Both the position numbers and the translations under genes were made by a program. From Elusimicrobiota bacterium (GTDB lineage Bacteria > Elusimicrobiota > Elusimicrobia > UBA1565): a DNA stretch of 43,353 nucleotides. Each line of letters begins with the position of its first letter. The stretch's first letter is position 1. A model generated the notes under the pieces. That model saw only the letters and a program-made list of their open reading frames with translations, was not told where the DNA came from and made no database searches. Where the stretch lies: NCBI GenBank assembly GCA_043819795.1, contig JBDREN010000169.1, positions 1 through 43,353 of the forward strand, written 5' to 3'. This document shows positions 33,967 to 43,353 of the stretch, piece after piece.

Positions 33967-34103
33967 ACCGTCCCGCCGCGCTGCCCGCCGAGCCGCACGG
34001 CGACTCCGGCCGTCGTCCCCGCGACCCCAAGCTTCACCCAGTATCAATCTCATGAGCACTCTTGCGCGATCCGGCCGACCGGCGCACAGCCAATGCCAAG
34101 CGA

Positions 34104-34149
34104 CATGGCTTTGGATTATGACGCCCAGGTTCGAATCCTAGTGGGGCAG
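34104..34149 (+). pseudogene. 3' half of a tRNA-Gln(TTG) (pseudo-tRNA / attachment site)
   Basis: Anticodon arm CATGG-CTTTGGA-TTATG, variable ACGC, T-arm CCAGG-TTCGAAT-CCTAG (one mismatch), acceptor 3' strand TGGGGCA + discriminator G. No TGCCCCA 5' strand in the upstream intergenic region; only a D-arm-like GCCAAGCG at 34095. Confidence 0.75.
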
Positions 34150-34320
34150 ATGATTTGGACAGAGAGCCATTTGGGACACGATCTCAAATGGCTTTCTCCA
34201 TTGTGGGACGAGCTTTATTCCATCCAGCAAAAAGTTCGAGCACACCGAGGCCAAGATTTCTCTCTTCTGCGCGGCGTTCGCCAATTTGTACTGCTGGCAA
34301 CATGTATCAGACAGCTCGGA
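34138..34320 (-). pseudogene. C-terminal remnant of a large serine recombinase reading into the tRNA 3' end
   Basis: Hand translation SELSDTCCQQYKLANAAQKREILASVCSNFLLDGIKLVPQWRKPFEIVSQMALCPNHLPH*, matching the recalled KRxxL..SN..LDG.KL...RKPF...LP tail of tRNA-targeting recombinase-family proteins; in-frame TAG upstream at 34339-34341. Confidence 0.65.
34161..34197 (+). terminator. Hairpin immediately after the tRNA-Gln end
   Basis: AGAGAGCCATTTGGGA-CACGA-TCTCAAATGGCTTTCT, 16-bp stem with two G-U pairs. Confidence 0.65.
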
Positions 34321-34490
34321 TTCACACAGCCCTCCCGGCTACCCAATAGATCCATGCCCCTGCACGTGTGGAGAGTGATCAGTGCCGAGAGTTCGCACAC
34401 AAAGGATCCGACGATAAAGAGGATGGCTGGTGGAAGCGCGCAAAGGGCGAGCCTGGGCCGAAGGTCCGACTTCTATGGAGTGATCGGCCG

Positions 34491-35387
34491 TTACCTCAGG
34501 CGGACGCCCTTCACCCTGCCGAGCAGCTGGGGCGTCTGGTCGCGGTTGTCGGCGCGGGCGGCATCGCGCACGAAGGGCGTCAGGAACTCGTGCAGGTCCT
34601 TGAGCGACGTGCGCCGCTCGTTGAGGCCGCGAAGGAAGTGGTAGGTGAAGAGGCCGTGGCCCTGGGACTCTTCGCTTCCGGTGATCTCGTCGCCGGCCGA
34701 GGCCGCCAGGACCGCGACGCGGCCGATCCCTATCGAGGCGCCGTCCGTCTTGAGGACAAGGGGGCGTGTGCCCTTCGGGATGACGGACCTTCCGCCCGCG
34801 CCCGAGAAGCATGCGTCCAGGGCGACCACGACCTGCTTCGCCTTCAAGGCGTCCAGGCGCCGGTAGAGACGTTTGAGAGGGTAGGCCGTGTTGGCGAGAT
34901 ACTTGGGGTCGCCGTCCCACGGCAGCAGGTAGGCCGACCTCGTCTTGACGTCGGGGGCCCCGTGCCCGGAGAAGTACACGAGCACCTTGGACCGCTCGTC
35001 GACCTTCTCCGGCAGCCAGGATTCCACGTATTTTTCGATCGCGGCCCGCCCGGCGGACCGGCCGGTCAGCAACACGACGTTCCTGTCCGGATAGCCGAGA
35101 GCGAACAGGTGGGCGCGCACCGCCCGGGCGTCGCGCTCCGCGAAGTCGGCGTTCGGAAGCCCCTCGTAATGCTCGATCCCCACGATCACGGCGTACAGGT
35201 CTTTCCGCTCCTTGAGCCTGTAGTCCGGCTCGTCCACGTCCGATTTGTAGGTGCGCTGGGGGGACCCCTTCGTCTCGGCCGGAGGGGCGAGGTCCAGCCC
35301 CGCGAACGGGTCCCGCGTGGGAGGCGGCGCGAAAGGCGAGGCGCAGGCGCTGAGGGCCATGGCGAAGGGGAGGATCCATCGTCTCAT
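34491..35387 (-). CDS. Caspase-family (peptidase C14) lipoprotein, catalytic dyad intact
   Basis: Lipobox MRRWILPFAMALSAC; AVIVGIEHY, YFSGHG (His), LDACFSG (Cys), HGLFTYHFLRGL, QTPQ. Confidence 0.88.
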   Translation of the reverse strand: MRRWILPFAMALSACASPFAPPPTRDPFAGLDLAPPAETKGSPQRTYKSDVDEPDYRLKERKDLYAVIVGIEHYEGLPNADFAERDARAVRAHLFALGYPDRNVVLLTGRSAGRAAIEKYVESWLPEKVDERSKVLVYFSGHGAPDVKTRSAYLLPWDGDPKYLANTAYPLKRLYRRLDALKAKQVVVALDACFSGAGGRSVIPKGTRPLVLKTDGASIGIGRVAVLAASAGDEITGSEESQGHGLFTYHFLRGLNERRTSLKDLHEFLTPFVRDAARADNRDQTPQLLGRVKGVRLR

Positions 35388-35391
35388 CGCG

Positions 35392-36828
35392 TCACCTCAG
35401 TTTGACCCCTCCATCCCCGATGAGCCGCACGGTCTGCTCGCGGTTCTCCCTCCGCGCGGCGTCCGCCACGGCCTTCGCTGCCAGAGAGCGCAGTTCCTTG
35501 AGCTTGGCCTTCCCCTCCTCGCTCTGGAGGGCCTTGAGGAAATGGTACGTGAAAAGGCCGTGGCCCTGCGCGGTCGCCGCCCCCGCCTTCTCCGATGCGG
35601 CTGCGGCCGTCAAGACCGACAGGTTCGCCGGGACGGCGTTCTTCACCTCCATCACGAGCGGCCGGGCCCCCTTGGGCAGGACCGAGCGTCCCCCCGTGCC
35701 GGAGAACCCCGCGTCCAGCAGCACCACCACCTGCCGGGCCTTTTGCCCGGCAAGCTTCTCGTAGAGCCGCTTGAGCGGATAGCCCGTGCTGGCCAGAAAG
35801 CGCGGATCCCCGTCGCTCGGCAGGAGATACCTCTCGCCACTCTCCACGTCGGGAGCCCCGTGCCCCGCGAAATAGAACAACACGCGGGACTTCTTGCCGA
35901 CCCTCTCCGGCAGCCAGGACTCGACGTATTTCTCGACCGCCGCCCGGCCCGCGGCCGTCCCGACCGCGTAGGCGATGTTGCGGCGCGGGTAGCCCAAGGC
36001 CAGGAGGTTGTCCAGGACGGCCTGGGCGTCACGCTCGGCGAAGGCCGCCCGGGGCGAGTGGTCGTAGGCCTCCACTCCGACCACGACGGCGAAGAGGTCC
36101 TCCTCGACGGGGTGCAGGAAGGCGGGCCGGTCCACGTCGGAACGGATCGCGGAGAATCCGGCGTTCGCGGCCGCCGCTCCCTTCGCGCGGACCGCCTCGG
36201 CGTAGTTCCGGAGAGGCTCGGAGGCCAGGAGCTCCCGCTCGAGGTCGTAGCGCGCCTGGAGGTAGGCATCCCTGATCTTGACGTCCATCCTGCCGGTCCG
36301 TCGCTGAATGTGCACGACGCGGAGGGACTCCAGCTGCCGGCCGTTGGGGGTCAGGAAGATGGCCCCGTTGTCCACGGTGATCACCCCGGGATGTAGCAAG
36401 CACATATTCACGAGGACGCCTATGGGGAAGGTAATGGGGTTCATCAACCATGCATAGCGCAGGTCGATCTGGAATTTCGGCGACCGGATATCCACGACCG
36501 CCACAACGTCGGCGCCTGAGGCGGCCGCGTCCTTGAGCCGCCGGGCCAGGAACACCTTCTTGAAGTCCCGTTGGAGCATGCCGCTGATGTCTTCGAACAA
36601 CCCCTCCGGATCGAAGTCCCATCCGCCCAGCCGGCGGGCCCATTTCCGGCCCATCCGGCCGTACTCGATGGCGTCCTTGGTGTTCTGGGAGATCATCAGG
36701 GCCAGCGTGAGTTCCTTGTACGGGGACGCGGGCGGTTTGGCGCCGAAAGGGTCCACGGGGCGCGGGGTGGAGGCGCAGCCCGAAAGGAGCAGGCAAGCCG
36801 CCAGCGCGGCGGCCAGCGGCCTGCTCAT
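35392..36828 (-). CDS. Caspase-family (peptidase C14) lipoprotein, catalytic Cys replaced by Gly
   Basis: Lipobox MSRPLAAALAACLLLSGC; AVVVGVEAY, YFAGHG, LDAGFSG, HGLFTYHFL. Confidence 0.85.
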   Translation of the reverse strand: MSRPLAAALAACLLLSGCASTPRPVDPFGAKPPASPYKELTLALMISQNTKDAIEYGRMGRKWARRLGGWDFDPEGLFEDISGMLQRDFKKVFLARRLKDAAASGADVVAVVDIRSPKFQIDLRYAWLMNPITFPIGVLVNMCLLHPGVITVDNGAIFLTPNGRQLESLRVVHIQRRTGRMDVKIRDAYLQARYDLERELLASEPLRNYAEAVRAKGAAAANAGFSAIRSDVDRPAFLHPVEEDLFAVVVGVEAYDHSPRAAFAERDAQAVLDNLLALGYPRRNIAYAVGTAAGRAAVEKYVESWLPERVGKKSRVLFYFAGHGAPDVESGERYLLPSDGDPRFLASTGYPLKRLYEKLAGQKARQVVVLLDAGFSGTGGRSVLPKGARPLVMEVKNAVPANLSVLTAAAASEKAGAATAQGHGLFTYHFLKALQSEEGKAKLKELRSLAAKAVADAARRENREQTVRLIGDGGVKLR

Positions 36829-36931
36829 TCGGTCTCGGCGGACCCTAAGGGAATGCATCGGCTTTTGGACCCTCATTGTAAGCCTCATGCCTTTGGAAGT
36901 CAAGACTCATTAGAAGTGGTGGCAGTGCTCT

Positions 36932-37150
36932 TCATCCGTCGTGAATCACGGCTGGCTTCACACCGAGCCGAATACTTCCCAGTCTCTTCTGATTCCTGAC
37001 CATAGGCCTTGTTTGATGCAGCTCCCACTGTGAAACAGCCGTCTTCCCAACCCACAGCCCCTTCGCCAGATCGATCTGAGTCAGACCACGCTGAATCCTC
37101 AGATATCGGATTTTCTGACCTAAAGTCCTCGGTTTGCCGAGTTGGGCCAA
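36932..37150 (-). CDS. XRE-family HTH protein (possibly degenerate, start uncertain)
   Basis: PRTLGQKIRYLRIQRGLTQIDLAKGLWVGKTAVSQWE...RP; TTG start; AT-richer codons than neighbours. Confidence 0.65.
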   Translation of the reverse strand: MAQLGKPRTLGQKIRYLRIQRGLTQIDLAKGLWVGKTAVSQWELHQTRPMVRNQKRLGSIRLGVKPAVIHDG

Positions 37151-37194
37151 AATCGCCTCTTTGGCCGTCTGATGGCAGCAGCTGGAAACGGACG

Positions 37195-37227
37195 CGGAAA
37201 GTCCTTTCTATCAAATGACTCGGGCAG
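37195..37227 (+). repeat. att-like junction repeat, copy 1
   Basis: CGGAAAGTCCTTTCTATCAAATGACTCGGGCAG; followed by hairpin GAGCCCTCC-GCGA-GGAGGGCTT-TT (37251-37274). Confidence 0.9.
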
Positions 37228-37393
37228 TGACTCGAACGGCATACAGAACCGAGCCCTCCGCGAGGAGGGCTTTTCCCCGCCGGGAACGCTGCTGGGCACG
37301 GCTCACCTGGGAATTCGGAGCTGCGCTTGCAGGACCCCATCCGACAACCGATTCAAGGAGAAGCCGCCGCTGGACGGGGTCCGATAACGGCTC

Positions 37394-37927
37394 CTAGGAT
37401 TCCGGAGAGGTCCGCTCGCCTTCTTGGAAGATCTCCTCGACGAAGAATCTGGTCTTGGCGGGCACGCTGCGACGGGGATAGTATCGTTCGATCAGGGAGA
37501 ACACCGATTGGGGATCCTCTAGGCCGAGGTAGCGGATCAGAAAGCGAACGTCGTCGCGGTCATGAGTGTCGAACCTCGCTGATACGCACTTCATGGCCAG
37601 CATGTAGTCTGCCCGCGGGGCCCACACGCGAAGGTTGGAGAAATCCAAGACGACTTCCCTCGGAGGCTCCGCGTGGAAGTACCCCTTCGCGGCGTCGTTC
37701 AGCCAATCCTCGGGGAGATCGAACCTGCGGGCCACCGCCCGGACGGCCCGCCGCATCTCGCGGGTCGGCCTGAACACCGCATCCACGTCCTTCGTGGCCT
37801 TGCGCGCCTCGAAGACCAGGCACATCACGGCGCCGCCGCACATCCCCACCTCGCCCACGACATCCATCTTTTCCAGTTCCGCATTGAGGGCCTTGAAGAG
37901 CTTTCGGATGAGGTCTCGATCCAGCAT
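37394..37927 (-). CDS. Nucleotidyltransferase (DUF6036 / AbiEii-like), putative toxin
   Basis: CGGAVMCL...RKATKDVDAVF, DWLND, YMLAMK...AR...DRDD. Confidence 0.8.
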   Translation of the reverse strand: MLDRDLIRKLFKALNAELEKMDVVGEVGMCGGAVMCLVFEARKATKDVDAVFRPTREMRRAVRAVARRFDLPEDWLNDAAKGYFHAEPPREVVLDFSNLRVWAPRADYMLAMKCVSARFDTHDRDDVRFLIRYLGLEDPQSVFSLIERYYPRRSVPAKTRFFVEEIFQEGERTSPES

Positions 37928-37929
37928 GA

Positions 37930-38490
37930 TTAAGCCCGAGAGAGGAAGTTCCCCAAAACGAAGATATTCCTCTGCCGGAAGGAGGCGGGCGACTCGACCA
38001 AGGCCGTCGCCTTCAGATTCTCAATGCCCGCCACGAACCAAGGGTCAGGCACCGGCGGGACTCCGGCGCACCACCAGGGGACCGCGACCCCTTGTTCGGC
38101 GCAAAGGCGCTCGACCGTCGCGCAGAGAAGAGCATGGAGGCGATGACTGAGGCCGGGATGAGGCCCCTCCGCCACGAGATCGCAGGAAGGACGCCTCCTG
38201 AAAGCGTCGACGAATTCGAAAAGCGCCAGGCGCCAGGAATCCTCCCCCTCCCGCACGATCCGGGCGGAAGCCTCCGCGATCGAACCGGCGCGCGCCGGGG
38301 ACGCTTTCTCCCCCTGGAGGGAGCTTACCGTCGCGCCCAGAGCCTCGGCGATCTTGGCCAAGGTGGACCATCGCGGATTGTGCCCCCCCGCCTCCAAGAG
38401 CTGCAGGGTCTTGTAGGCGACGCCGGCTCTTCGGGCCAGTTCCCTTTGAGAGAGCCCAAGTCGGCGCCGCTTCTCCCTGATCGACTCCAT
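37930..38490 (-). CDS. XRE-family HTH protein, putative antitoxin/autorepressor
   Basis: IREKRRRLGLSQRELARRAGV...LEAG..NP...TLAKIA; C-terminal PWFV...ESPASFRQRNIF; stop 2 nt before the NTase start. Confidence 0.82.
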   Translation of the reverse strand: MESIREKRRRLGLSQRELARRAGVAYKTLQLLEAGGHNPRWSTLAKIAEALGATVSSLQGEKASPARAGSIAEASARIVREGEDSWRLALFEFVDAFRRRPSCDLVAEGPHPGLSHRLHALLCATVERLCAEQGVAVPWWCAGVPPVPDPWFVAGIENLKATALVESPASFRQRNIFVLGNFLSRA

Positions 38491-38496
38491 AGGGAT

Positions 38497-38525
38497 AGTA
38501 TAGTTGACGTAATATATTACGTCAA
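38497..38525 (-). promoter_or_regulatory. Leaderless sigma70 promoter overlapped by a perfect 22-bp palindromic operator
   Basis: TTGACG-17 nt-TATACT-6 nt-ATG on the - strand; palindrome TTGACGTAATATATTACGTCAA at 38504-38525. Confidence 0.85.
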
Positions 38526-38595
38526 TGGCCCTCTGGCGACACGTTCGATGCCCTGGGCGGGCCTCTCAGTCGTCGGTGGCAGATGGAAGCGCACG

Positions 38596-38628
38596 CGGAA
38601 AGTTCTTTCTATTGAATGACTCGGGCAG
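38596..38628 (+). repeat. att-like junction repeat, copy 2
   Basis: CGGAAAGTTCTTTCTATTGAATGACTCGGGCAG; followed by AATTTGGAC (cf. ATGATTTGGAC after the tRNA) and hairpin GGGCCCT-CCG-AGGGCTC (38651-38667). Confidence 0.9.
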
Positions 38629-38812
38629 AATTTGGACCATAGAAAGAACTGGGCCCTCCGAGGGCTCGTCCTATCTCCCGCCGCGAACACCTTCTGCATC
38701 GCCCCGACGAATCCGACACTCCGCATGCTTGGACGTATCCGCCGCATGTCTCAGGCAGCCCCCCCTTCTGAAGGAACGCCCCCCTTGGGGCCGTTCTTGC
38801 CAAGCCCTCGCC

Positions 38813-40279
38813 TCAAAAGGCCAACAAGAAGTCGAGGAGCGGAACGAGGAGAACCCGCCTGTCGGGGAAGGCTTCGTACGTCTCGCGGGTCACGGCGATG
38901 CCGATCGGCGAACGGTGTCTCTCCATGAAGCGGAACAGCGGTCCCAGGTCCCCACGCTCCACCCGTCGGCGAAACTTCACCTCGACCGGGATGACCGTCC
39001 CATCCAGATCCTCCAGAACGAAGTCCACCTCCTCGAACCCTCCCCTCGGCTTGGCCGGATCCCGCAGGCCACGATAGAAGTGTACCTGCAGGCCGACTCC
39101 CCTCAGCACCGTCTGAACGAGGGTCTCGACGAGCGGCCCCACGACATCGGGCTGGGACTCAGCCAGCGACGGCGCGCCCCGGAAGATCGCGTTCCGGACC
39201 CCCAGGTCCGTCAAGGTGATCTTCACGGGGGTCTTCGCCGCGGCCTTGCGGGCCAAGGGAAAGCGGGAGAATTCCCGGATGAGTAGGGCGTCCGCCAAGT
39301 AATGGAGATAGCGGCCCACGGTGGGCTGATTGGTCGCGTACCCCGCCGAACTCGCTTCGTCGGCCAGCCTCTTCTGGGCGATCTCCTGACCAGTTCGCCG
39401 CGCGACCTCCATGTAGAGATGCCTCAGCAGGCGCGGCTGATCCACCGGGAACAGATCGGGAATGTCCACGCCCAGCACCCGCTCGAAGACTGTCTCGACC
39501 AGGTAGTCCGCCCACCGGTCCTCCTCGACGGCGTCGGTGTGAAGGTCCGGATAACCGCCCCGGTTGTAGTACCTCTCCAGCCTCCGCATCCAGCTATGCC
39601 GGCGCTGCGGGGGCTGCCGATGGACCGCGTCGAAGACCTCCGCGGACTTCCAGCCTCGCCCGATCAAGTCCCTCCAGCGGAGGCGGCTAGGAAGCCCCTC
39701 AAGAGAGCCGCCCTGCACGAGCTCCAGAACCTCTCTGAACTGCATGGGCGGGATCTCGGTGGTGAGGGCCCGACCGGCGAGGCTCTCGCGCTGTCCGCGC
39801 GCCACCAATACGCTCGATGAGCCCGTCAGCATCATCCTCGGCCGGTAGGTATCGAAGACATGCTTCACCTGCGCGCTCCACTTGTCGAGCTTGTGAATCT
39901 CGTCAAGGAGCAAGTAGGCCGGCGGCCCCTCCGCCAGCGCCCTCCCACGGACGTCGGCCTCGTACCACCGCAGCATAGCCAGCAAGCTGCTTTGCTCCCG
40001 CAGCACGTCGAGGTCGAAACGAACGAACAGGATGTCGGTCGGCGCTGTCCCCGAGGCGACAAGCCGCCGTACGACCTGCAACATCGCGGTCGACTTGCCC
40101 ACTTGGCGGGGGCCGCGCAACACTTGGACTCTCGCCCCCTCTCTCCTCAGCGCCTCCAGCACCCCGGCAACCGCCGGCCTCTCATAGGCCGGCGGATCCG
40201 GCCGCACACGGTGAGGCGGGGTCCACCAGGGGTTGGTCTCCCTGAGAACCTGCCTAGATTCTTGTGATAACAGCGGCAT
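38813..40279 (-). CDS. AAA-family ATPase (AAA_14 + DUF4143-type) with C-terminal PD-(D/E)xK-like motif
   Basis: NPWW, GPRQVGKST, LLLDEIH, TGSSS, ESLAGR, GGYP, EVDFV...IPVEVK. Alternative start at 40294. Confidence 0.88.
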   Translation of the reverse strand: MPLLSQESRQVLRETNPWWTPPHRVRPDPPAYERPAVAGVLEALRREGARVQVLRGPRQVGKSTAMLQVVRRLVASGTAPTDILFVRFDLDVLREQSSLLAMLRWYEADVRGRALAEGPPAYLLLDEIHKLDKWSAQVKHVFDTYRPRMMLTGSSSVLVARGQRESLAGRALTTEIPPMQFREVLELVQGGSLEGLPSRLRWRDLIGRGWKSAEVFDAVHRQPPQRRHSWMRRLERYYNRGGYPDLHTDAVEEDRWADYLVETVFERVLGVDIPDLFPVDQPRLLRHLYMEVARRTGQEIAQKRLADEASSAGYATNQPTVGRYLHYLADALLIREFSRFPLARKAAAKTPVKITLTDLGVRNAIFRGAPSLAESQPDVVGPLVETLVQTVLRGVGLQVHFYRGLRDPAKPRGGFEEVDFVLEDLDGTVIPVEVKFRRRVERGDLGPLFRFMERHRSPIGIAVTRETYEAFPDRRVLLVPLLDFLLAF

Positions 40280-40299
40280 TAATCCAGACTCCATACATA

Positions 40300-40328
40300 G
40301 TTATACACGGCATTTATAACTCTGTCAA
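40300..40328 (-). promoter_or_regulatory. Near-consensus sigma70 promoter for the ATPase cassette
   Basis: TTGACA(40328-23)-17 nt-TATAAC(40305-00). Confidence 0.75.
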
Positions 40329-40418
40329 GCGGGGCCGAACAGCGATTGCCGCACGCAACCGGCCATCTGCGCGCCTTTCCAACCTCAAATATCATCCCCT
40401 TCAAAACTGAAGCCAACC

Positions 40419-40454
40419 CGGAAAGTTCTTTCTATTAAATGACTCGGGCAGCCA
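40419..40454 (+). repeat. att-like junction repeat, copy 3, ending in tRNA-like GGGCAG-CCA
   Basis: CGGAAAGTTCTTTCTATTAAATGACTCGGGCAG + CCA + TTTTTT. Confidence 0.9.
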
Positions 40455-40463
40455 TTTTTTAGG

Positions 40464-40489
40464 GGAGGAACCTCTTCGGAGGCTCCTCC
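40464..40489 (+). terminator. UUCG-tetraloop hairpin after junction copy 3
   Basis: GGAGGAACCTC-TTCG-GAGGCTCCTCC followed by TTT. Confidence 0.65.
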
Positions 40490-40588
40490 TTTCCATTTCA
40501 GTAAAATTTGCTTGCGCGATAGTTCGAGTACTACCCGATGAAGAGGAGTGTCGCGGTTCAGACCTTTTTGGACACTTTGGCGTCCGAT

Positions 40589-40806: not shown

Positions 40807-43353
40807 CTATCGCTTCTTGTCCGCCCCCATGTCCGGCTGGGCGCTCAAGCCCGTCCACTTCTGCATGAGGCCCGGAGCACAGCCCTTCTTCAGCTGGCCC
40901 TCCCCCACGCCCAGCGCCGCGGCGATCTGCCGGCAGGTGCAGCCCCGCGTCGCGGCCATGTCGTAGACCGCGCTCTGCGCGTTCCCGGGACCCACCTCGA
41001 ACGCCCCGAACGCCGCGTCCCCGTTCTGCCCGTACTGGTTCGGGTTGAGCGCCATGGCGTCGAGCGCCGAGTCCGGGCACGCGTCGGACTCGCCGTCGAA
41101 GTCGTCGGGCACCCCGTCCGCGTCCGAGTCCGCCGGCGCCCCGACCGCGTAGTGGCTGAAGTGCTCCACCGCCACCGTCAGCGTGTTGTTGACCGTGTCC
41201 ACCGCGGCCCCCAGCGCCTCCCACTGGCCGGAGGCCGGGATGTAGCGGTAGACGTCGAGCTTAGCCTCCGCCCGCGGGTTCGACAGCTGCGAGTCCTCGT
41301 AGCGGAACACCAGCTTCACCGGAGCCCCGAAGCCCGCGCCCGAGGGCATGATGTCGTAGTGCAGCAGGATGGTCGCCCCGCCCTTGTTCGTCTGCACCGA
41401 GAAGTTGCTCTGGTCGCTCACCAGGCTCACGGTCGTCGGGTCGCTCATGGCGCCGGGCGGGAACGTGGCGCTCACGCCCTCGGAGGTGACCGTGCCGCCG
41501 CCGGAGCCCACCACCGCGCTCGCGTCGCCGTCCTGCGCGTTGGCCTCTCCGTCGCCGTCTATGTCGTCGTCGCAGACGTCGCCTTCCGTATCGTCCGAGG
41601 CGGCGTCATAGTTCGCCTGGTCCGGGTTGTAGTCGTTGGGGCAGTTGTCCGCGTCCCCGCACACTCCGTCGCCGTCCGCGTCATTGTCGGGGTCATTGGG
41701 GCACGCGTCGCACGCGTCGCCCATGGCGTCGCCATCGGCGTTCGCCTGGTCCGCGTTGGCCGTAGCCGGGCAGTTGTCGAGCGCGCCCTCGTACTCGTCG
41801 CCGTCCGCGTCCAAAGCGTCGTTGCACGCGTCCCCGATGCCGCTTGCGTCCGCGTCCGCCTGGTCCGCGTTGGCGGTCATCGGGCAGTTGTCCTCGCCGT
41901 CCAACGATGCATCGTTGTCGTCATCCGGATCCACGCAGTCCGCGGAGCCGTCGGCGTCGTTATCCGGGAACCCCTCGTCGATAGAACCGTCACAGTCGTT
42001 GTCCAGCCCATCGCAGTCCTCGGCCGACGGCGTCCCCTCATCGCAGGTGTCCTGCTCCTGGCCCGCCGCGCAGATCAGCTCGCCCGTCGCTGCGCACACG
42101 CCCTGGCCGCAGCTCGTCCCCGCCGCGACGTACCCGTCGTCGGCCGTCCCGTCGCAGTCCTGGTCGACCCCGTCGCAGTCCGCGTCATCCGAGGCCGGCG
42201 TCCCCGGCATGCAGGAGTCGACGACCGCGCCGTCGACGCAGGCGGTCGTCCCCGAGGCCGCGCAGGCGCCGACGCCGCAGGAAGTCGCGGAGGCGGCAAA
42301 GCCCTCGTCGGTCTGCCCGTCGCAGTCGTTGTCCTGACCGTCGCAGAGCTCCGCGGCTCCCGGATTCGTATCACTATTCAGATCGTCGCAGTCCACCGGC
42401 CCGCAAGAGCCGCCGTCGGGGGAGTATCCGTCCTGGTCGAGGTCCGCGCAGCCGCAGGGCTCTCCGGAGTCCGAGTTCACCGCGATGCTGACCGTGGCGG
42501 GGTCGGAAAGCGACAAAAGGTCGCTCGCCATGTAGGTGAAGCCGTCGGTCCCGCAGAAGGTCGGATCGGGAGTGTAGGTGAAGGAGCCGTCGGGGTTCAG
42601 GCTCAGGCCGCCGTGGTCCGGGTCGGTGTCCTGGACCGCGGTCAGGGGGTCCCCGTCCGGGTCGCTGTCGTTGGCCAGGACCCCCTCGGCCATCGCGCGC
42701 GGCCGATAGACGAACACGCCGTGGGACGTGCCGGCGTAGAGCTCGTTGCGCCCGTCCCCGTCCAGGTCCGCGATATGGACGCGGAAGACGTCCGCCTCGT
42801 CCTGCGCCATGTCGTCGCGCCAGACCTCGGCATAGCCGGAGCCGTCATATTGGAAAACGATGACGCTTTCGCGGCGCCCCGCCTGGTAGCCCCAGCCCAG
42901 GGTGCCGGCCGCCAACTCCTCGCCCCCTCCCGTCAGCAGCTCGCCCACGTCCAGGGACGGCTGGCTGTCGGCGTAGGTGCTCAGCGCAGGCGAGGTGAAG
43001 ACCTTCTGGTAGTTGTGGTCGTAGATCCAGAGGACCGGCGACGACCAGCCGCTGCCGCAGGAGCCGGGATTGAGGCCGCGGACGAACTCCAACTGGCCGT
43101 CCCCGTCCAGGTCGCCCGCCGCCACCCCGCTGATCCCGTCGCCGGTGTCCGATAAGACGACGTTGCCGGAATGGTTGTAGACCCTAAACCCGTACTCGCC
43201 CCAGCACGACGTCCCGGCCACCAGAAAATCGGACCCCGCGGGGGCGATGGCGTTCACGTCGCTGTTGATGCCGTCGTAGAAGGACTGGGCGTAGCTCGTG
43301 CCGTGTACTCGAAGGCGATCATCCTGCGGTTCCACCAGGGCTCCCCGACCACC
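40807..43353 (-). CDS. Large surface/secreted protein, 5'-partial: FG-GAP-like repeats, Ig-like/VCBS module, MopE-type Cys/Asp repeats, thrombospondin type-3 repeats, ZU5-like C-terminal domain
   Basis: GDLDGDG and ADLDGDG; GVLANDSDPDGDPLT...LNPDGSFTYTP; DCDD...PGAAELCDGQDNDCDG; DNCP...NADQADAD; HFSHYAV. Frame is open to the window end. Confidence 0.88.
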   Translation of the reverse strand, partial: GGRGALVEPQDDRLRVHGTSYAQSFYDGINSDVNAIAPAGSDFLVAGTSCWGEYGFRVYNHSGNVVLSDTGDGISGVAAGDLDGDGQLEFVRGLNPGSCGSGWSSPVLWIYDHNYQKVFTSPALSTYADSQPSLDVGELLTGGGEELAAGTLGWGYQAGRRESVIVFQYDGSGYAEVWRDDMAQDEADVFRVHIADLDGDGRNELYAGTSHGVFVYRPRAMAEGVLANDSDPDGDPLTAVQDTDPDHGGLSLNPDGSFTYTPDPTFCGTDGFTYMASDLLSLSDPATVSIAVNSDSGEPCGCADLDQDGYSPDGGSCGPVDCDDLNSDTNPGAAELCDGQDNDCDGQTDEGFAASATSCGVGACAASGTTACVDGAVVDSCMPGTPASDDADCDGVDQDCDGTADDGYVAAGTSCGQGVCAATGELICAAGQEQDTCDEGTPSAEDCDGLDNDCDGSIDEGFPDNDADGSADCVDPDDDNDASLDGEDNCPMTANADQADADASGIGDACNDALDADGDEYEGALDNCPATANADQANADGDAMGDACDACPNDPDNDADGDGVCGDADNCPNDYNPDQANYDAASDDTEGDVCDDDIDGDGEANAQDGDASAVVGSGGGTVTSEGVSATFPPGAMSDPTTVSLVSDQSNFSVQTNKGGATILLHYDIMPSGAGFGAPVKLVFRYEDSQLSNPRAEAKLDVYRYIPASGQWEALGAAVDTVNNTLTVAVEHFSHYAVGAPADSDADGVPDDFDGESDACPDSALDAMALNPNQYGQNGDAAFGAFEVGPGNAQSAVYDMAATRGCTCRQIAAALGVGEGQLKKGCAPGLMQKWTGLSAQPDMGADKKR

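Follow-up and report, generated by a model that had tools for sequence, protein, structure and literature searches.

Integrons combine the integrase IntI, attC stem-loop sites and promoterless cassettes that are read from a shared promoter. In Dehalococcoides, the ssrA islands of the serine integrase DsiB stand in tandem behind an RNA gene, and the accessible part of the report proposes that 15 islands without an integration module are cis-mobilizable (PMC3146451). Stacked islands have already been described in streptococci as well. The course from integration through decay to a cis-mobilizable element (CIME) and on to accretion is given as a general route in the available sections of a second source (PMC5704250), and the tycheposons of Prochlorococcus are, in the available text of a preprint, tRNA-anchored islands formed by repeated integration, in which newer insertions push older ones outward and cargo is left (bioRxiv 10.1101/2020.12.28.424599). 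Herein, we analyzed a 43,353-nt stretch of an Elusimicrobiota bacterium (GenBank assembly GCA_043819795.1, contig JBDREN010000169.1, positions 1 to 43,353; this whole stretch is called the window), in which a 33-bp repeat and a tRNA-Gln-like sequence mark off three units of accessory genes in a row. With a probability of about 0.65, we consider the region to be a tandem pile-up of decayed site-specific islands of large serine recombinases (LSRs), which is CIME-like, of a known kind and not an integron. No account of this array in Elusimicrobiota was found in the literature search, outside which most subscription journals fell.

The 33-bp repeat starts at 37195, 38596 and 40419 on the + strand, and 0/100 shuffled controls gave such a match. 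The similarity between copies 1 and 2 extends over about 50-77 bp, and copy 3 is an eroded arm that retains about 45 bp of about 100 bp. The last 6 bases of the repeat equal 34144-34149, the end of the tRNA-like sequence, and copy 3 runs on into CCA. The resulting units measure 3078, 1401 and 1823 bp, all of their cargo lies on the - strand, and no intact integrase was found within the window. On the three repeat sites, the shared last 6 bases, the CCA of copy 3, the unit sizes, the strand of the cargo and the absence of an intact integrase, the first-pass annotation, which had been made from the letters alone, was confirmed. It had also placed a hairpin behind each of the four cores; all four are present, three of them with z values against shuffles of -6.0, -2.1 and -2.8, while the one after copy 2 folds no better than shuffles (z -0.45). 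Rfam returned no match of note on the window. The units and junctions are as follows; L numbers are loci from related DNA, and L089, described below, is an intact element.

34080..34149, + strand: decayed tRNA-Gln(UUG)-like copy, the 3' part of which is the B arm (attB-type half-site) with a GTTC motif 18 nt from the crossover.
34147..34148, + strand: likely crossover dinucleotide CA of the left, attL-type junction, placed by the symmetry axis of the L089 attP and by inverted insertions at TG in L028 and L035.
34149..37226, + strand: unit 1, 3078 bp; left end and right arm of different LSR families, arm match 6/15.
34147..34317, - strand: LSR C-terminal stub of 57 aa, 49% identical to the C-terminal end of the L052 LSR (E 5e-15).
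34162-34200: hairpin in the coding sequence of the LSR stub, serving as terminator (z -6.0).
37169..37227, + strand: P arm copy 1 (33-mer 37195-37227), crossover CA 37225-37226.
37227..38627, + strand: unit 2, 1401 bp, opening with a GCCCTCC-type terminator at 37251-37275.
38551..38649, + strand: P arm copy 2 joined to a cognate-type P' arm, crossover CA 38626-38627.
38628..40450, + strand: unit 3, 1823 bp; arm match 12/15, the sole unit of the window with a cognate pair of ends.
40406..40451, + strand: P arm copy 3 with its crossover CA at 40449-40450; GCCA and a hairpin (40461-40491) come next; attR-type junction.

We collected the DNA behind tRNA-Gln(CUG) or its 3' fragment at 73 loci, of which 72 belong to genomes of the order and one to a metagenome contig; 64 of the loci had at least 600 bp downstream, and LSR-like sequence begins less than 200 bp from the tRNA in 32/73. 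In a related genome, L089 holds one intact 7.8-kb element at tRNA-Gln(CUG), with the 33-mer at +7813, an LSR of 540 aa (Resolvase, Recombinase and zinc-ribbon domains) reading into the tRNA, and five or six further genes. Its ends are inverted repeats of each other over 14 bp, set off from CA by a 10-nt spacer on each side, and in L028 and L035 the arm was inserted backwards into tRNA-like sequences that carry TG at the crossover position. Considering the symmetry of L089 and these inverted insertions at TG, CA is the likely crossover dinucleotide; GC, at which the 2-bp-short junction of the window had hinted, was rejected in its favour. The 33-mer is the phage-side (P), far-end arm of the site of one LSR family, as this one complete element shows. 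Further, a GTTC motif, putatively bound by protein, lies 23-24 nt from CA in 32/37 P arms compared to 18 nt in the tRNA arm, and of 30 left ends that bear an LSR, 19 have the end of the mirror motif at +23/+24 and none has it at +17 to +19. In serine integrases the distal motif stands 5 bp farther out in attP than in attB, according to the part of the source available (PMC3783163), which fits the spacing found here and supports the serine-recombinase reading. An inverted-repeat attP around a 2-bp crossover, a shifted distal motif and a cognate LSR with three domains are all seen among these loci, and the earlier proposal of serine-recombinase-type att sites is well supported by the L089 element and its inverted repeat around CA. 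In the window, the copy 2 junction carries an 11-bp inverted repeat (38602-38612 / 38639-38649), and its right half, which is the left arm of unit 3, has a spacing 2 bp shorter than that of the intact attP.

The cognate LSR was present in 10/101 genomes of the order (E 1e-80 or better) and could not be found in the present one (4.99 Mb in 241 contigs, 90% complete). The search for an intact LSR that the first-pass annotation had suggested did yield one whole enzyme, at tRNA-Asn on contig C117, which was rejected as the cognate one at about 30% identity to this group, and the truncated LSR on C61 is not cognate either. The LSR of L025, whose frame runs through the repeat, was rejected as well, as its left end has no mirror motif and the true pair is found in L089; L025 is a junction between two LSR families. 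At L025:7046-10019 an LSR beside a P4-family primase stands directly behind the 33-mer, a satellite-like element at an internal position of an array. In C61:12749-13452 and C117:14909-16738, the last LSR codons are the antisense of tRNA-Gln(CUG) and tRNA-Asn, respectively, and integration alters the C-terminus of the recombinase. A sister LSR group with 53-55% identity to the cognate enzyme (L142, L143, L144, L145) has a similar arm motif and sits at tRNA-Asp and tRNA-His.

A search of the genome for the repeat likewise gave more copies, which are not confined to the window: two on C129 (2491 and 4201) and a diverged one on C151 (42994). All titled genome records with the motif (9/9) are Elusimicrobiota. 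In a sample of the phylum the motif was present in 10/401 genomes, namely this one and 9/48 of the sister family, and in 0/9 of this genome's own family; in the viral contigs searched, neither the repeat nor the tRNA remnant was matched.

The first-pass annotation had set the array at a tRNA-Gln 3' end. The specificity for the 3' end of tRNA-Gln is borne out by the related loci; the anchor in the window is a different matter. Positions 34080-34149 agree with the tRNA-Gln(CUG) of this genome at 38/57 positions, with a UUG loop and at most 4/7 acceptor pairs kept, as read from the sequence. Neither ARAGORN nor Rfam called a tRNA there or elsewhere in the window, and a relaxed ARAGORN run gave 373 noise calls that were disregarded. 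Judged by its letters, 34080-34149 is a decayed copy and not a working tRNA-Gln gene, and it was probably imported. No tRNA stands behind bcp in any of the 11 family relatives with a bcp match; bcp has different neighbours in the relatives, and an empty site at the same chromosomal place cannot be defined. The intact tRNA-Gln genes lie on C61 and C218, and the tRNA-Gln(CUG) on C61 bears an LSR of another family, which reads into the tRNA and runs off the contig. Two further sites were seen in the genome. At C151:42600-43030 a decayed tRNA-Tyr-like copy is followed about 300 bp further on by the diverged repeat, and at C107:4099-4170 a bare tRNA-Gln 3' half is followed by a GCCCTCC terminator, a gene like the ORF6N cargo of L071 and four caspase-domain genes, which makes a second array-like site.

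Arrays behind tRNA-Gln are common in this Elusimicrobiota order. Hand curation gave 37 units that lack an intact LSR, the three of the window and one of C129 among them; pattern matches judged false (L117, L123 at 1885, L053) and doubtful junctions (L078, L120) were left out. Their lengths run from 588 to 9235 bp with a median of 1823, and they are closed by at least five arm types. Two to six units were found in 8/16 tRNA-anchored loci, with up to six in L124, and the junction motifs favour the tRNA strand over the other by 19 to 0 in one count and 29 to 3 in another. Of the 77 open reading frames (ORFs) in units outside this genome, 75 were scanned for domains after two near-duplicates were dropped; recombinase, relaxase or primase domains occurred in 0 of the 75, and the products include six caspase-domain proteins, ParE, HicB, Fic, metal-resistance and two-component genes. 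Over their first 3231 bp, L103 and L124 are alike at 93%, and they part exactly at the crossover junction. Intact cognate-family LSR elements lie behind the arms of other families in L140, L141 and L149, and one in a bare tRNA 3' fragment in L148; these placements show that elements stack and that partial tRNA copies serve as sites. L041 is made up of the cognate left end, an LSR stub of about 95 bp, a cargo gene 91% identical to that of L089 and a P arm, and it reads clearly as a deletion derivative of a full L089-type element. Unit 1 of the window, with its opening stub from an LSR family other than the cognate one, is by its two ends a chimera. Read data added little: two runs contained 0.20 and 0.07 of the words, and in four low-coverage runs the pieces were short, no att junction was bridged among the pieces listed, and none of the joints listed fell at one.

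From these loci a course of events can be proposed. Several LSR families of the order insert in the tRNA-Gln acceptor stem at CA, the likely crossover, where the LSR gene lies on the strand opposite the tRNA and reads into it. New elements enter an occupied site or a partial tRNA copy and so stack, in an order of events that we infer, and deletion would then strip the LSR and core genes until att ends and one to three cargo genes remain. Loss of the LSR by deletion is seen in L041 against L089 and in the stub of unit 1, and is presumed for the other units. Among the findings that would refute its reading, the first-pass annotation had named units that prove to be remains of large islands shortened by deletion with no excision, and these two cases bear this out in part. 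Its idea of sequential insertion with variable cargo is supported by the stacked elements and by gain and loss exactly at the junctions in relatives. To judge by the CIME literature and these exact divergences, a neighbouring or visiting LSR element that recombines at their junctions probably takes the leftovers with it or causes their loss. The array in this genome is probably stranded, given a decayed anchor tRNA, an attP-like junction that lacks 2 bp and a search in which the cognate LSR did not turn up.

Four points weigh against this account. Simple decay should leave LSR-coding stubs, yet a stereotyped GCCCTCC-type terminator was found in 30/48 arms opening or following recombinase-less units compared to 0/30 LSR-bearing left ends. 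This terminator may be the tRNA-Gln terminator of the hosts moved by cis-mobilisation, it may be a shortened form of the hairpin coded within LSRs, or it may identify a dedicated cassette. In L075, L101, L103, L105 and L124, short palindromes (e.g. TATCCTCAAGGATA) turn up repeatedly in the stretch from the crossover to the terminator of this left end. The units are also small and tight (median 1.8 kb, often single-gene). Cognate left and right arms occur in 6/37 units, which is rare, as expected for mosaics, yet above the 2.1 that chance would give (p ~0.006, with kin that are not independent). Finally, the insertion order is undated.

The cargo and its surroundings in the window are as follows.

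34491..35387, - strand: caspase-domain (Peptidase_C14) protein with a lipoprotein-like N-terminus.
35392..36828, - strand: second caspase-domain protein, a paralog of the first.
36932..37150, - strand: short XRE helix-turn-helix (HTH) ORF of 72 aa (HTH_3, E 1.4e-8), possibly a regulator remnant.
37394..37927, - strand: putative nucleotidyltransferase; weak DUF6036 match (E 0.0026), below the Pfam cut-off.
37930..38490, - strand: XRE HTH protein.
38497..38525, - strand: promoter of unit 2, picked up by the promoter scan and overlapped by a 22-bp palindrome (38504-38525).
38813..40279, - strand: AAA_14/DUF4143 ATPase, matching the PADLOC candidate defence model PDC-S01.
40807..43353, - strand: large FG-GAP/Ig/TSP3 repeat gene, right of copy 3.

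The nucleotidyltransferase and HTH genes of unit 2 are paired in 8/8 homologous loci, and their products are probably the toxin and the antitoxin or autoregulator, respectively, of a toxin-antitoxin-like pair. Units 2 and 3 had been credited with promoters of their own. That of unit 2 came out of the scan, and that of unit 3 (TTGACA-17-TATAAC at about 40330-40302) was recognised by eye only. The att-less homologs of this cargo keep the same promoters where the flank is present, and the promoters therefore belong to the genes and not to a cassette. In the fetched flanks of the homologs (three ATPase loci and eight HTH/nucleotidyltransferase loci), an att arm, a tRNA or an LSR was found in 0/11; two weak profile matches (E 0.14 and 0.9) fell within genes.

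The large repeat gene is probably the cargo of a fourth unit that would continue on C129, across a predicted, unbridged gap of about 260 bp. The left end of C129 carries N-terminal modules of such a repeat gene and then two repeat copies around a toxin-antitoxin-like unit of 1710 bp. Within C129:1-7651, this unit, between the copies at 2491 and 4201, holds AbiEi-like and nucleotidyltransferase-like genes (named from their translations), and an ankyrin-caspase gene comes after it. Compared to the paralogous module on C129, the large repeat gene shows a one-base frameshift at about 43290-43300 of the window, which is either an assembly error or the sign of a pseudogene. Proteins that combine a caspase domain with a lipoprotein-like N-terminus, and often with ankyrin repeats, are strikingly common as tRNA-Gln cargo in the order (window 34491-36828, L071, L082, L091, L092, L097, L098, L101, L124), and they form a large paralog family in this genome.

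The units might instead be dedicated non-autonomous cassettes, each composed of an attB'-like left end with a terminator, cargo and a P arm, that circularise and reinsert through a helper LSR acting in trans, which we regard as unlikely. The left end would then restore a usable attB behind the tRNA, so that arrays grow and reshuffle as in integrons. The stereotyped left end (30/48 arms against 0/30) is what such cassettes would show, as are the series of up to six units in L124 and of two or more in 8/16 loci, the divergence of L103 and L124 exactly at the junction, toxin-antitoxin-type and single-gene cargo, and an LSR element at the intact tRNA-Gln of this genome on C61. A two-component unit opens the array of L095 and follows a junction in L020 with a left end alike at 91%, which also suits movement as a unit. 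However, 31/37 units have non-cognate ends, only 3/32 internal right arms show AAC where attB would have it (+17 to +19), and shared cargo in most cases keeps one boundary or none. The cargo of the window is found without att sites in 11/11 loci, the motif is absent from the viral contigs searched, and attR x attB is not recombined by most serine integrases, as stated in the available part of the source (PMC3783163). In its widest form, this explanation would have the order run an integron-like gene capture by serine recombinases, with a standard left end (CCA and terminator) restoring the tRNA-Gln site, right arms from at least five LSR families, visiting LSR elements that excise and reinsert units, the tRNA gene as a shared cassette store and the window as a stranded copy; this is conceivable, and we hold it to be improbable.

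That the arms are dead scars in an ordinary variable region, with the DNA between them shaped by deletion, homologous recombination and unrelated insertions and the units never mobile as such, is quite unlikely: the decayed anchor, the eroded arms (copy 3), the missing cognate LSR, the chimeric unit ends and GCCCTCC hairpins that also occur away from junctions would suit it, but the distal motif spacing is kept in 32/37 arms, the junction motifs are strand-specific (19 vs 0; 29 vs 3) and relatives diverge exactly at the crossover.

Under the reading as stacked, decayed LSR islands, these loci mark tRNA-Gln as a hot spot in a phylum that has been little studied. For several uncharacterised LSRs they also yield natural attP/attB pairs whose crossover is defined; these can be tested directly and are of interest for genome editing. 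Should the standard left end turn out to belong to cassettes, an integron-like system would exist that runs on serine recombinases, and one would have to revisit the rule by which attR-type sites lead nowhere unless a directionality factor is present.

Compared to integrons, the array shares a row of small accessory-gene units, toxin-antitoxin-type cargo and variable content, but it has double-stranded serine-type sites, cargo with its own promoters, no IntI and no attC stem-loop. The 22 PF00589 matches in the genome include none on C169 or C129; an intact element identifies the repeat as an LSR half-site, with nothing of note in Rfam; and the gene-borne promoters, conserved in att-less homologs, take the place of a shared one. 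The integron analogy of the first-pass annotation, which lacks a resident integrase, an attC-type site and a shared promoter, was therefore not upheld.

The staphylococcal cassette chromosome (SCC) and pseudo-SCC composites resemble the array in that, as far as the source text goes, serine-recombinase elements are stacked at one site, some without a recombinase. Their target is rlmH in the text available, compared to tRNA-Gln here, and the present units are much smaller. The best NCBIfam match of the cognate LSR is CcrB, at 170 bits against a cut-off of 900, far under the Ccr cut-offs, so that neither a Ccr recombinase nor an rlmH site is found. Tycheposons, as the accessible preprint text describes them, mostly use tyrosine recombinases and have units split by partial tRNA copies (bioRxiv 10.1101/2020.12.28.424599), whereas LSR half-sites separate the units here.

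CIMEs come closer. In the sections available, they have lost integration and transfer genes, keep attL and attR, stand in tandem with functional or decayed elements and show chimeric junctions (PMC5704250). Neither integration nor transfer genes were found in the window units or in the 75 related-unit ORFs; the right arms are clear, and the left arms are cognate in unit 3 only of the window and in 6/37 units overall. Deletion origin and tandem arrangement are seen in L041 against L089, the stub of unit 1, and L025, L140, L141 and L149. The tRNA-Lys composite example in those sections uses tyrosine integrases (PMC5704250), and a conjugative origin and cis-mobilisation are not part of the evidence for the array.

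With the Dehalococcoides ssrA islands, the array and its related loci share a tandem arrangement behind an RNA gene, a serine recombinase of about 540 aa on the reverse strand beside attL, a conserved motif upstream of each repeat and units that have no integration module, as given in the accessible part of that report (PMC3146451). Set against the same part of the report, the target here is the CA of the tRNA-Gln acceptor stem and there the T-loop of tmRNA; the array has no 20-bp direct repeat of the RNA gene and at least five arm types at one site, and its units are mostly 0.6-5 kb with a stereotyped terminator left end. With its three small recombinase-less leftovers, the array is a miniature form of the stacked islands known from Dehalococcoides and streptococci.

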